Source of the DNA: Saccostrea cucullata
Lineage: Eukaryota
Direction of reading: 5' to 3'
NCBI RefSeq assembly: GCF_032062105.1
Contig: NW_026927899.1
Location: forward strand, 186,001 to 250,000
Length of the DNA: 64,000 bases
Numbering within the stretch: the first letter of the stretch is position 1; the number at the start of each line of letters is the position of its first letter. The position numbers and the translations under genes were made by a program. The notes below the pieces were generated by a model. That model saw only the letters and a program-made list of their open reading frames with translations, ran no database searches and had not been told where the DNA came from. Positions 11,443 through 18,699 of the stretch are shown piece after piece.

Positions 11443-11706
11443 TAAATAAACATTTATTGGTACAATAAATTGTTTTATATACAAAATTTTATAATCTTTA
11501 TAACTTATGTAATTCTCCATTTATTTGTTTCCCTTTCGAACATAAAATGGTGCCTTATTTCTTTGATAAGATGATAAAATGCATTTACAATAAATTGGCA
11601 TTTAGATTTTATAGTTTGGACCAATCAAATAAAGTTATACGTATCACGTGATTAATTCACTCTAGCCATTTTTTATCGTCGAAGAAGCCGCACAAATTTT
11701 CAGCAA
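11443..11706 (+). repeat. Ngaro split direct repeat A1
   Basis: Matches 18056-18276 apart from 2 substitutions and a cluster of indels at 11539-11602. Confidence 0.92.
11619..11675 (+). promoter_or_regulatory. Putative Pol II promoter in repeat A
   Basis: CCAAT box (11621-11625), E-box CACGTG (11645-11650) and a YY1-like GCCATTTT motif (~11665), ~230 bp upstream of the first ORF; also present in A2. Confidence 0.4.
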
Positions 11707-11898
11707 GTGATTTTGTATTTTACAGTGTTTTTGCATCGTTTTCGGCATAAACTTTTGCAGAACGTAATTATATGTTACATGATGGAATAGACTGTGATAT
11801 TTAAGGTGCGTATTTTAGCGATTTCGCATATATTTTGATGTAAACAGTGGACTGTGTCTTGTGTTGTTTACATCTATAAATAGACACCTTATGTAAAC

Positions 11899-12507
11899 AT
11901 GGCTGCGGGACGGGTAAAAGTAGTGATTCTGGGACACTCGTTTATACGACGTTTGCGTGATTTTGTGTTGTCAACACCTGAGTATAGCAATTTGAGACTT
12001 TATTCTACACAATTCTCTGTTGAATTTCGAGCGAGAGGAGGTTTATCCATCCGACAATTAGCCAACAGCCCACAATTGACGGACTTCGTGGACCAAGATG
12101 TTTGTTTTTTACAAATCGGAAGCAATGACTTATGTGATCCAGCGATTCCAGTGAAAGACATTGCCAATGGAATAACATCATTTGCTTCTTTTTTGATCGC
12201 TGCGGAAAAGGTGAAAGTTGTGATTATTGGCCAAGTCCTCTTTAGGTCACCACATGCTACAGATCCAGATTACAACAACAGAGTTAGAGAACTGAATGTG
12301 TTATTGAAATCGAATTGTGTAAACTCGGACGCAAACTTGAGATTTTGGCATCACTATGGATTCTGGAAGGATCCGAATTTGCCCCACTTATCACCAGATG
12401 GTGTCCATCTACAGAATCCGAGGGTAAATGCCCGTCCCATGCAGAAATATGCCCAAAGCATCAAAAGTGCAATTCTACATTGTGCTCGCACCTTCATGCT
12501 CAGATAA
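11899..12507 (+). CDS. SGNH/GDSL-like hydrolase (202 aa) carried by the retrotransposon
   Basis: Block I VILGHSF, block II RGG, block III QIGSNDL, block V DGVH; uninterrupted ORF inside the element repeats. Confidence 0.88.
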   Translation: MAAGRVKVVILGHSFIRRLRDFVLSTPEYSNLRLYSTQFSVEFRARGGLSIRQLANSPQLTDFVDQDVCFLQIGSNDLCDPAIPVKDIANGITSFASFLIAAEKVKVVIIGQVLFRSPHATDPDYNNRVRELNVLLKSNCVNSDANLRFWHHYGFWKDPNLPHLSPDGVHLQNPRVNARPMQKYAQSIKSAILHCARTFMLR

Positions 12508-12781
12508 GTTATGTAAAAATTTACACTGTTGCCCATACACAAAATAATTTTTATGACTATTAGGGTGTTTTGTTTGGGCTTAAGCTAAAAACATAATTGA
12601 TTATATACCCTAAAATTTTATCATGTCGATAAAGACTGAAGTACATATATGCTATTCAGATCATTAATTCGAATCACTTAAATTGTTATATCAATTTTCT
12701 TTCATTTACATTATGAATTTTATTCACAGTAATCTTTAAATTCATAAGCAATGGCACTGTTAATCTATAGAATTTATGCAA

Positions 12782-13160
12782 CATCATTTATGGTGAATAC
12801 AATTTCTTGGAAGTATTAACATGCCTTTTCAATTATGGCAGATATACAAATTTACAATGCATTTTTACGCTGTGTCAATTATAGCGGATGCATTTTTATT
12901 AGCATTTTTACGCTGTGTCAATTATGGCGGATGCAATTTTTTTTTATTAATGCATTTTGACGCTGTGTCAATTACAGCGGATGCAATTATTTAATTAAAT
13001 TAATGCATTTTTACGCTATGTCAATTATAGCGGATGCATTTTTTAACATTTCTACACCTTGTCAACTATGGTGTATCTAATTTTTATAATGCATTTTACA
13101 CCACGTCAATATGGGTGAATGCATTATCTGGCATTTTTATGTTATGTCTATAAATGACAA
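12782..13160 (+). other. Array of 7-9 predicted RNA hairpins with a conserved (G)UCAAU-type loop
   Basis: Units atgcatttttaCGCTGTG-tcaat-TATAGCGgatgcat with G-U pairs and compensatory changes between copies. Confidence 0.65.
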
Positions 13161-13669
13161 TTGCTTGGCTTGAATGTTTAACAACTTTATAAACATTTAA
13201 GGTCATGATGTTCATGATCAATGCTATTATTAATTTTAAGTCAAGTATTTTACATTTAAGTCACGTTATTTATGGACTTTATCCTACAATATTTCAACTT
13301 CTCCAGGTCATATAATTCACATTTGTTTTAAACTAATAAACATTAAATTATAGATTGAAATAATTTAATCATATATTCAAATTGGAAGTTTACAAATGAG
13401 TTGGCTTCTTGGCTTATGGAATTCTGTATGTATTATATAGGCTAGATGTCCTTTATCACATAAATTCTTTTGAATTCCAAAATACTTATCATGCTTATTG
13501 AAGACAATATTTTAATTTCAAAGCTGTTAAAATCAATTACTTTGAAATTTCTTAACTTGTTGGTGATATGTATTTTATACATATTTATTCTGAAATATTT
13601 CAAAATATATTGACATAGATTCAAGTGGATGTCAGTTATTAATTATTACAAAATTTTTCAGTTATCAAC

Positions 13670-14779
13670 ATGGGTCCAAAAAGAAAACCACCACCAACTT
13701 CGCAACAAGATGGGTCAAAACGGACAAAGCAGAATTCAAATAAACGGCAAAAGCAATCATCAATCTCTGTGGACAATCAATTAACCATGGGTCCTCTGAA
13801 CATTGACTATGACTTATTAGCTGAGGCCATTTTAAAGAAACAACAAGTTTCAACTGTCACACAACCCACCCAAAACGTCAATACGACTCAGGAAACGCCA
13901 TCAATTGAGGATACTGGGACAAATATGAACACAATTATCCAGCCCAGGGTAGAAACCCAAACGGATGCAACAAGCTCACAGACATCTACCATAACTGAAG
14001 CTCCATCCACAAGTCAAAACTACAGCAACCACTTCTCATCTCTATTACACGAATTATTTGCAGGTGAGTTGGGGGCAAACAATAATGCAAATGCTAGTAC
14101 AAATCCGCCATTATCTATAGATGAGGGTATTCCTCTAGGTGCAAACACCCCACACAGAATCAAGCAAAAAATTTGGTCTGATCAATTTTTTGATCTCCGA
14201 TCCTTACTTCCCAATTACAAAGAAAGCACTGTCTCCATTCAAATTGATCAAAGTTCTCTTAGTTTCTCAAATCAATCTGCTTCTAAATCTACCAACTCTC
14301 TGTCAATAGAACAGTGGACTACTGCATTTCACATTTTCATGGCCATTTATATTGAAAAGAAACCTGAAGATGCCCCACATTTATTGAAATATGCTTCAGT
14401 GATTAGAGAAATCGCAACCACGAATGGTGATGCAGCATGGCGTCATTATGACGAATCATTCAGAAAACTCCGCCAATCGCATACTTTGCCCTGGCAAAGA
14501 ACCATTTCTGAACTCATGGTTTCAGCATGCACCATTCATCGTTCGAAACAGCTTTTTCGGAACAATTTTCGTACCAAATTCAATGACAAATACCCCAAAG
14601 TGTGTTTCAACTTCAACAATGGCACCAAATGCAGATCAAACCCCTGCACCTATAAACATGCCTGTCAATCCTGTGGAGACTCAAATCACCCAAGAATTAA
14701 ATGCTCAAAAAACCAAACCAATTCAAAGTACCCAAAGCAAAATTCCAACGCCAATAAACGTGCCGAATCTAACTTGTGA
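13670..14779 (+). CDS. gag: Gag-like ORF1 (369 aa)
   Basis: Low-complexity N-terminus, helical core (KQKIWSDQFFDLRSLL...AWRHYDESFR) and C-terminal Cys/His fingers CFNFNNGTKCRSNPCTYKHACQSCGDSNHPRIKC; position typical of DIRS/Ngaro ORF1. Confidence 0.85.
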   Translation: MGPKRKPPPTSQQDGSKRTKQNSNKRQKQSSISVDNQLTMGPLNIDYDLLAEAILKKQQVSTVTQPTQNVNTTQETPSIEDTGTNMNTIIQPRVETQTDATSSQTSTITEAPSTSQNYSNHFSSLLHELFAGELGANNNANASTNPPLSIDEGIPLGANTPHRIKQKIWSDQFFDLRSLLPNYKESTVSIQIDQSSLSFSNQSASKSTNSLSIEQWTTAFHIFMAIYIEKKPEDAPHLLKYASVIREIATTNGDAAWRHYDESFRKLRQSHTLPWQRTISELMVSACTIHRSKQLFRNNFRTKFNDKYPKVCFNFNNGTKCRSNPCTYKHACQSCGDSNHPRIKCSKNQTNSKYPKQNSNANKRAESNL

Positions 14780-17215: not shown

Positions 17216-17706
17216 TCGTTCAAACAATCGGTCAATGTTGTACTACTCCCATTCCACATTTTTTGCACCGCTAACATAATAATATTATGTATCTGAACAA
17301 TTTGAACAGGCCAGGTTTGACTGCTGTTCCCACCAACTTGTCATGAACACTCGGTAGGCCAGTTTTTCGGCTGCTACACATTTCACATTTTATTGTTTAT
17401 AAGTTATAGTTTAACCTTTGCCCCCAACTCATCATACTCATGTCATTTCATTTGTGTTACTTTGTTTTGTAAATATGTTTTTGCAATGTTCAATATGTTT
17501 GTTGTCTTTATTTATTCACCTTACATTTATGTCTATTTTAAAAGTATTGCACAGGCCAGATATTACACTGTTGTGTTTATTTTAATCATCACACTAGCTT
17601 ATTTTTATTTTTTTCACTATTTATTGTTTTATAATGTATTTACCTGGCTATTCTTGGGTGGCGCAGTAAGTCACATGCTATTAGGCAGCATGTTTCTTCC
17701 TTTATG

Positions 17707-18027
17707 GCCTTTTTGTGCACCACCTTTTTGCTTTTTAAGTGTTTTTTACCATTATATTATTGGCTGGGCTGTTTTTTGTGTCATGTGATTAGAAAAAATT
17801 ATGTCATGTGACTAATATGTAAGTTTAACTAGTCAATTTGTGATCAACTGTATATTTTGTTTTAAGCCCAGCCAATTAATTGTTTTATAACTTTGTGTAA
17901 TATGTATTATAGATTTTATTCTTAGTCATTTGTTATTTGAATAAATGACAGTTTCACTCAATTGTGTTTCAGTAATTTATACAAAAAGTTAAGCAAAAAC
18001 GAGCTTCGAATAGCCAGAAATTGTCTT
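17707..18027 (+). repeat. Ngaro split direct repeat B1
   Basis: Near-identical to 18378-18699; contains AATAAA (17940-17945) and a 12-bp internal inverted repeat. Confidence 0.92.
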
Positions 18028-18055
18028 GTCGGATTATCAGGAAAATTTGTGGATA

Positions 18056-18276
18056 TAAATAAACATTTATTGGTACAATAAATTGTTTTATATACAAAAT
18101 TTTATAATCTTTATAACTTATGTAATTCTCCATTTATTTGTTTCCCTTTCGGGTGCCCCATGCATTTACGGCTAGATTTTATAGTTTGGACCAATCAAAT
18201 AAAGTTATACGTATCACGTGGTTAATTCACTCTAGCCATTTTTTATCGTCGAAGAAGCCACACAAATTTTCAGCAA
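18056..18276 (+). repeat. Ngaro split direct repeat A2
   Basis: Copy of 11443-11706. Confidence 0.92.
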
Positions 18277-18377
18277 CCACCTCTTCCCCTCCACCACCCA
18301 ATTTTTATGAATTTACTTGTTAATAAGGCATAATTTGTATTAAAATATGTTAACAATATGCAAGTTTTTTGTCGTGT

Positions 18378-18699
18378 GCCTTTTTGTGCACCACCTTTTT
18401 GCTTTTTAAGTGTTTTTTACCATTATATTATTGGCTGGGCTGTTTTTTGTGTCATGTGATTAGAAAAAATTATGTCATGTGACTAATATGTAACTTTAAC
18501 TAGTCAATTTGTGATCAACTGTATATTTTATTTTAAGCCCAGCCAATTAATTGTTTTATAACTTTGTGTAATATGTATTATAGATTTTATTCTTAGTCAT
18601 TTGTTATTTGAATAAATGACAGTTTCACTCAATTGTGTTTTCAATAATTTATACAAAAAGTTAAGCAAAAACGAGCTTCGAATAGCCAGAAATTGTCTT
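18378..18699 (+). repeat. Ngaro split direct repeat B2
   Basis: Copy of 17707-18027. Confidence 0.92.

Follow-up and report, generated by a model that had tools for sequence, protein, structure and literature searches.

An Ngaro-type retrotransposon of the oyster Saccostrea cucullata with a predicted SGNH esterase gene 5' of gag and a likely Gag-recombinase fusion made by splicing

The element and its genes

We begin with a 64,000-nucleotide (nt) stretch of the genome of the oyster Saccostrea cucullata (contig NW_026927899.1, positions 186,001 to 250,000; this whole stretch is called the window), in which an intact Ngaro-type tyrosine-recombinase retrotransposon occupies positions 11443..18699 of the plus strand. 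From left to right, and all on that strand, it reads A1-SGNH-spacer-gag-RT/RH-YR-B1-A2-B2, where the A and B segments are split repeats, RT/RH stands for reverse transcriptase and RNase H, and YR stands for tyrosine recombinase (Table 1). We consider it likely that this element represents a lineage in which a predicted SGNH esterase has a gene of its own in first place and gag codon 131 is spliced to YR, the recombinase being made as a Gag(1-131)-YR fusion and not as the product of a frameshift.

The layout with SGNH in first place had been claimed in an earlier note made from the letters of the window, and the map of open reading frames (ORFs) and the repeat comparison confirm it. None of the four ORFs (SGNH, gag, RT/RH, YR) contains a stop, the catalytic residues said to be intact in SGNH, RNase H and YR are all found when the translations are read, and the near-identity of B1 and B2 amounts to 98.8% over 322 nt. 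A1 and A2 match in one block of 96 nt at 100% and another of 104 nt at 98%, with middles that are unlike (64 nt in A1, 11539-11602, versus 21 nt in A2, 18152-18172), a difference absent from that note. The A1 middle looks like the A2 sequence with AT-rich stretches inserted, and the short form is frequent in reads and contigs. Unique linkers of 25 nt and 101 nt separate B1 from A2 and A2 from B2, and no target-site duplication was seen at the element junctions.

Table 1. Features of the element, in window coordinates
Feature	Position	Strand	Description
A1, left terminal repeat	11443..11706	+	Two blocks match A2; middle differs
SGNH/GDSL hydrolase ORF	11899..12507	+	202 amino acids (aa) from ATG; catalytic S14, G47/48, N76, D167, H170 intact
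Spacer	12508..13669	+	1,162 nt between SGNH and gag
Hairpin array	12855..13127	+	About six RNA-type hairpin units in tandem, with G-U pairs and compensatory changes
gag-like ORF	13670..14779	+	369 aa; basic N-terminus, C-terminal Cys/His knuckle
Splice donor CAG-GTGAGT	14061..14069	+	Last exon base 14063; phase 1 after gag codon 131
RT/RNase H ORF	14403..16310	+	635 codons stop to stop; +1 frame relative to gag
Splice acceptor TTTCAG-G	16226..16239	+	Within RNase H C-terminus; first exon base 16239
Tyrosine recombinase ORF	16232..17215	+	327 codons; -1 frame relative to RT, in frame with gag
B1 repeat	17707..18027	+	From repeat comparison with B2
A2 repeat	18056..18276	+	Two-block match to A1
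B2, right terminal repeat	18378..18699	+	From repeat comparison with B1

The class is assigned by structure alone, following the structural definitions given in PMC4157794. The gag, RT/RNase H and YR ORFs lie on the same strand and the internal repeats are 3' of YR, as in Ngaro elements. The terminal repeats are direct and have no long inverted arms at the ends, which separates the element from the DIRS1-like group with its inverted termini and internal complementary region. A PAT-like element would share the split direct repeats but carry a methyltransferase (MT) domain, whereas here the RT/RH ORF stops 27 residues past the last RNase H motif and Pfam gives no MT match. The absence of MT and of inverted termini therefore makes the element Ngaro-type, not PAT or DIRS1, and the earlier assignment is upheld by the split direct repeats, the ORF set and the missing MT.

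Three of the four ORFs have a match in a Pfam search, and the catalytic residues were placed in the translations with the help of family motifs. RT/RH matches RVT_1 (E 8e-11) and, below the cut-off, an RNase H-like family (E 2e-4), with D263, D331 and D332 of the RT and D496, E529, D554 and D604 of the RNase H all present. RT residues 328-332 (about 15384-15398) have the form H-(L/I/V)-(I/L)-D-D, without Tyr, in all 16 RTs compared (the window's and those of 15 related loci); the usual RT motif at that site is YxDD. YR matches Phage_integrase (E 1e-6) and retains R173, K210, H285, R288, W311 and Y319. The gag ORF has no Pfam match, and its core matches the ORF that precedes RT in related loci.

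The SGNH ORF matches Lipase_GDSL (E 2.7e-7, above the cut-off) and has blocks I, II, III and V of the SGNH/GDSL superfamily, with S, G, N and DxxH, on an SGNH fold. Its predicted structure has a local distance difference test score (pLDDT) of 96 and a template modelling (TM) score of about 0.7 to platelet-activating factor (PAF) acetylhydrolase and GDSL esterases, and the closest folds include sialate O-acetylesterases. The family counts 477 representatives at E<=1e-30, the nearest Atlas clusters are eukaryotic, mainly from Mollusca and Cnidaria, and for one relative of the element the nearest cluster is mostly cnidarian with few records. The best sequence match of the family profile in the PDB is 4c1b, the esterase of ZfL2-1 ORF1p (E 3e-9).

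What might such a protein do for the element? The ZfL2-1 ORF1p esterase hydrolyses esters and binds phospholipids (PMC3905857), and by analogy we see an even chance that the oyster protein would be an active accessory enzyme that binds or deacylates membrane lipids and so aids particle movement. The trafficking or host-evasion role put forward in the earlier note likewise goes no further than an analogy with ZfL2-1. The conservation of the catalytic motifs argues for catalysis: across 16 elements GHSF and GxND are present in 16 of 16, and DG(V/I)H, under a strict pattern, in 14.

It seems somewhat unlikely to us that the protein is kept for another purpose than trafficking, either counter-defence, with a host protein or signal as the substrate of deacylation, or service as a scaffold or RNA binder, like the OSK domain of Oskar, which also has the SGNH fold. 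Consistent with such a role are a family member of 2341 aa (P0044) with six SGNH stretches and a match to Pfam OSK (E 4e-10), the basic character of the oyster protein (isoelectric point 9.6), the kinship of its fold with the PAF acetylhydrolases and sialate O-acetylesterases, and the presence of the same SGNH family in gypsy, LINE-adjacent and large-ORF contexts (LINE, long interspersed nuclear element; see below). The ORF is also stand-alone, and no longer, fused SGNH protein occurs among 630 candidates, which is weak evidence. The conserved catalytic motifs, however, count against a role without catalysis, and the esterase of ZfL2-1, according to PMC3905857, binds lipid and not oligo-A RNA. 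We keep the membrane-acting esterase as the preferred function.

The gag-to-YR splice

We turn our attention to the RNA of the element. RNA contig sequence leaves the reference at 14064 into the letters of 16240 onward and, where it enters at 16236, carries the letters of 14051-14060. The donor at 14063 is the only one with a 7/7 consensus among those listed for 11443-16300. The join of 14063 to 16239 is in frame and gives a 456-aa Gag(1-131)-YR fusion, of which YR supplies the C-terminal 325 aa. A RefSeq protein of S. cucullata (P0243), also of 456 aa, shows no difference from gag over 132 aa or from YR over 325 aa, and the same junction is present in a sibling copy (P0364, from a 1,440-nt Logan contig) and in a gene model of S. 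echinata (P0363). The mean depth of oligo-dT raw reads is 4.0 over SGNH, 2.6 over the spacer, 15.4 over the gag 5' exon, 2.5 over the skipped 3' part of gag and RT, and 17.4 over YR. RNA depth thus falls about sixfold over the intron, while DNA reads are flat over the same parts (5.0-6.7) and one DNA contig runs unbroken over 14051-17331. The dominant RNA of the family is a spliced gag-YR message.

This result alters one part of the earlier note, in which SGNH, as the cap-proximal ORF, was the probable main product. An RNA contig does cover the SGNH ORF (11819-12876), but RNA over the gag 5' exon and YR is about four times deeper than over SGNH, and a cap-proximal place is not shown, nine ATGs preceding the SGNH ATG from the start of A1.

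Are the splice sites retained in other elements of this kind? Both sites are conserved across distant families. At the acceptor, the Gln that lies two or four codons past the RNase H 'SR' is encoded by CAG in 13 of 13 families (background, 0.13-0.69); one further locus, without the 'SR' motif, is left out of the count. At the donor, a phase-1 G-GTR is found 41-116 nt ahead of the gag core in 15 of 18 families, compared with 4/18 and 3/18 in control zones. No Met lies ahead of the conserved N-domain in 10 of 12 YR ORFs. Among the best 120 YR homologues, 14 are proteins of 399-495 aa with basic N-terminal extensions, none of them containing the gag core; they come from Saccostrea, Crassostrea, Ostrea, Mizuhopecten, Pecten and Mytilus, plus two further records. 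Residues 1-131 of gag are matched at E<1e-3 by 8 of the 13 N-extended homologues other than P0243.

Several points weigh against this account. The Gag-YR junction was observed in one RNA contig of one run, and it is not among the 15 of 25 joints listed for the raw-read RNA run, so there is no raw-read count for it. P0243 is probably the gene model of this very locus and hence not independent, and the Logan contig behind P0364, whose source is not on record, could stem from RNA or DNA. In the comparison of families, the CAG probability (log10 -5.3) overstates independence, the families being related; the donor zone was picked after inspection of the data; the E-values of the N-extensions carry no composition correction; and an early Met is in fact present in two YR ORFs, the window's (Met at 16259) and that of the related locus L038. 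Of 15 elements, only about 5 have a strongly hairpin-rich spacer. As for the SGNH message, read pairs over 11856-13289 (SGNH and spacer) in the pooled raw RNA run are mostly first-mate-plus, at about 7:1, and pairs over RT (14485-15679) in the same run are mostly first-mate-minus. Because the two are of opposite strand class, sense transcription of SGNH is not established in that run, and antisense RNA over SGNH is possible.

An alternative route to the recombinase is a -1 frameshift off RT/RH (Poulter and Butler 2015) or initiation at its own Met, with the spliced RNA arising as a by-product or through a host pathway that draws RNA away from RT. In the 2015 review (as PMC13003380 quotes it) frameshifting is held to be the probable source of YR, and the window shows the overlap described there, with YR in the -1 frame over the end of RT/RH. 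The Met at 16259 would allow independent initiation, and removal of RT from most transcripts would reduce transposition. Against these arguments, the join is in frame, both splice sites are kept in elements that share only about 42-50% of RT residues with the window's, the early Met is missing from most YR ORFs, and proteins of the fusion type are found among the gene models of several bivalve genera. We therefore regard the frameshift or own-Met route as improbable, and proceed with the Gag-YR fusion.

The join could also have come from a genomic deletion derivative instead of a splice. Internally deleted copies do exist: DNA contigs contain the joints 11976->17664 and 14091->17711, and the end repeats are up to about 50 times deeper than the element interior, from which we take the family to consist of few full copies and many short, non-autonomous derivatives. 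The RNA-contig run may also contain DNA. The breakpoints, however, form an exact GT...AG pair whose donor is the best in the element, the sites are kept in distant families, DNA depth is flat over the intron, and the DNA contig noted above runs through it unbroken. A deletion is thus very unlikely, and the join is best taken as a splice.

No similar device is found for RT. Across 18 elements neither a Met nor a phase-matched acceptor is conserved ahead of RT, and a second splice leading to RT is thus unsupported. An exact-sequence look-up in the protein collection found none of six Met-started RT forms, nor the Met-started YR, nor the full gag.

The abundant gag-YR RNA probably starts, or is spliced in, near the 3' end of the spacer, at about 13600-13625, by way of an internal promoter or a splice from the A1 leader, for which 11806 is a candidate donor. 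P0364 extends 15 codons 5' of the gag ATG along genomic sequence, and the RNA depth has a step in the same area. A candidate acceptor at 13661, ahead of the gag ATG, was rejected: the transcript behind P0364, which follows the genome to at least 13625, does not use it. In 13 of 18 elements an AG lies no more than 10 nt from the gag ATG; as it could be start-codon context, it was not counted as an acceptor.

The hairpins that the earlier note saw in the spacer are real. The array folds with z = -4.0 against 100 shuffles, 90% of its cells are paired, and 4 of 14 pairs are changed on both sides between units; Rfam gives no match to it. A universally structured spacer was rejected, a segment at z <= -2.5 being found in 8 of 15 spacers and in 5 of 12 RT controls. 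Unrelated tandem repeats (periods of about 31-89 nt), often with strong folding, lie between SGNH and gag in L003, L006, L046, L060 and L057/L067.

The SGNH gene in related elements

The next question is whether the SGNH gene belongs to the element or has only landed in this copy. Relatives were collected by a profile scan of metagenome contigs, with at least 226 confirmed among at least 599 pattern matches, and the best 80 loci were taken. They are distant from the window's element (25-42% identity in SGNH). In 35 of the 80, gag and/or RT lies downstream of SGNH; 34 are too short to tell, nine are long without an Ngaro partner, and two have YR upstream. In the family of L007, four insertions have a common 5' boundary about 320 nt ahead of SGNH. 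The DNA depth of SGNH equals that of gag-RT-YR, both in contigs (236 versus 231) and in raw reads (6.4 versus 5.4-6.7), which marks SGNH as an integral part of the element. Its 5' position is a trait of a widespread lineage and not a one-off. In viral contigs no relatives were found with the two alignments tried.

As calculated from 20 pairs of related loci, the ratio of nonsynonymous to synonymous substitution rates (dN/dS) of SGNH lies at 0.07-0.28 for the 13 pairs whose dS exceeds 0.2, and that of RT is 0.08-0.12 where measurable. Six close pairs (SGNH dN/dS 0.22-0.62) are uninformative and one further pair is saturated. Trees of RT and SGNH from 16 elements, the window's and its relatives, have six supported clades in common, and their conflict is confined to one three-member clade and unresolved parts. 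These comparisons show that SGNH is under purifying selection and co-inherited with RT. The two proposals of the earlier note on this matter therefore hold up: an SGNH 5' of gag does mark a distinct lineage, as the 35 loci, the depth and the shared clades support, and the check on dN/dS among related copies gives purifying and not neutral evolution.

It is hardly credible that SGNH is a mere passenger, or that it belongs as a 3' ORF, in the manner of amphibian Ngaro, to an adjacent copy or a circularly permuted one: the published Ngaro hydrolases do sit after YR (PMC9210276), two of the 80 loci have YR upstream, and short-read contigs collapse split repeats, so that A1/A2 pairs are hardly recovered apart from short end overlaps, but in the window A1 and gag enclose SGNH, of which the 64 kb contain no second copy, 12 of the 35 loci with gag or RT downstream have 1.2-7.9 kb upstream that is free of YR, and 14 of 16 loci with a complete YR end lack SGNH in the following 0.2-3.7 kb, as does the window's element after its YR. 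The two loci with YR upstream, L067 and L072, are permutations of the 5'-SGNH family of L057, in which the order is flank, SGNH, tandem repeat and then the sequence that opens L067.

Members of the same SGNH family are also found outside Ngaro. In two loci (L062:2047-7596 and L063:957-5490) a gypsy-type pol is followed by an SGNH of the window's family and then by a 712-aa ORF without Pfam match; in a quick tree the gypsy-borne SGNH nests within a supported clade of Ngaro SGNHs. In four others (L054:482-6053, L077:1375-7307, L022 and L034) SGNH is directly 3' of a 1,500-1,570-aa ORF without a confident Pfam match, with a weak match to NYN (E 0.008), in a putative mobile element. In L068:1-6458 an SGNH-bearing ORF is 5' of an endonuclease-RT LINE ORF2. 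From these arrangements SGNH appears to be an accessory gene traded among retroelements, as described for rotifers in PMC5408684.

Elsewhere in the window, a purine-rich tandem repeat (19519-19745; periods of 82, 42 and 20 nt) lies 0.8 kb right of the element. Two paralogous host ORFs, at 28159-29460 on the minus strand and at 60086-61337 on the plus strand, presumably resemble N-terminal domains of IgGFc-binding proteins, and a stop and a frameshift interrupt the second.

Comparison with known systems and meaning

How does the element compare with those already described? Two elements of Xenopus tropicalis, DIRS-53_XT and DIRS-54_XT, are Ngaro-like with a hydrolase ORF after YR (PMC9210276). 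They share with the window's element the A1...B1-A2-B2 split repeats, the gag, RT/RH and YR genes, the absence of MT and the extra SGNH ORF, a likeness that does not imply common descent of the hydrolases. In the amphibian elements SGNH lies after and overlaps YR, all ORFs overlap, and A1 equals A2; here, in contrast, SGNH comes before gag, a 1.16-kb non-coding spacer follows it, and the middles of A1 and A2 differ. Canonical Ngaro elements (PMC4157794, PMC8547959, PMC6681497) agree with ours in repeat layout, in the order gag-RT/RH-YR, in overlaps and in having no MT; ours differs by the extra 5' gene and by a YR likely expressed through the gag-to-YR splice.

Outside of YR elements, ZfL2-1 and other esterase-bearing ORF1 proteins of non-LTR (long terminal repeat) elements also have an SGNH fold with an intact active site 5' of the RT gene (PMC3905857, PDB 4c1b). 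ORF1p of ZfL2-1 combines the esterase domain with a coiled coil and stands in for Gag (PMC3905857); the oyster element, a YR element, has a separate Gag as well, and its predicted 202-aa esterase is a protein on its own. A stand-alone GDSL/SGNH ORF common to unrelated retroelement classes is reported for bdelloid LTR retrotransposons and Athena (PMC5408684), and the window's SGNH family shows such sharing in the gypsy loci L062 and L063 and the LINE-adjacent L068. The bdelloid GDSL ORF3, however, is 3' of pol, in another host group and element class (PMC5408684). The literature searched contains no hydrolase 5' of gag in a YR element and no gag-YR splice; the search did not extend to the primary Ngaro papers or Repbase, and the supplements of PMC9210276 may bear on ORF position. 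Hydrolase-bearing Ngaro elements were already known, with the ORF after YR, and what appears to be new here is the 5' position and the gag-YR splice.

Combining these results, we propose the following model of expression. A long RNA from A1 must exist, because SGNH is copied with the element; it would serve as the genome for reverse transcription and likely as the SGNH message. A commoner RNA, beginning or spliced in just 5' of gag, would give Gag when unspliced and the Gag(1-131)-YR fusion when spliced. As RT/RH is preceded by no conserved Met or acceptor, a +1 frameshift from gag is its likely route of expression. The basic N-terminal arm of Gag would bring the recombinase to the Gag particle or to the nucleus. 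Replication through the split repeats and integration by YR would proceed as described for the Ngaro family (PMC6681497).

A broader reading, which we offer tentatively and with somewhat less than even confidence, is that of an old animal Ngaro lineage, present in bivalves and probably cnidarians, with retrovirus-like expression. Full-length RNA would yield the stand-alone esterase, and the splice, with its sites inside gag and RNase H, would yield a Gag-tethered recombinase, replacing the frameshift model here and perhaps in Ngaro generally. The esterase gene would be an accessory exchanged between Ngaro, gypsy, LINE and other elements, its product acting on membranes and perhaps enabling particles to pass from cell to cell.

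The expression of YR in YR retrotransposons has so far been conjecture; in this element a Gag-YR fusion is indicated by RNA-derived sequence, by gene models and by the conservation of the splice sites. Such a fusion identifies the protein to express for biochemistry and permits a simple test by reverse transcription and polymerase chain reaction. It also suggests that many bivalve gene models named 'integrase/recombinase xerD homolog' are spliced transposon messages. The 5' esterase is an easily scored marker of the lineage and extends the repeated capture of SGNH genes by retroelements to a new position, and the 202-aa SGNH, a small protein predicted to be well folded, offers a means of probing what an esterase does for a retroelement.

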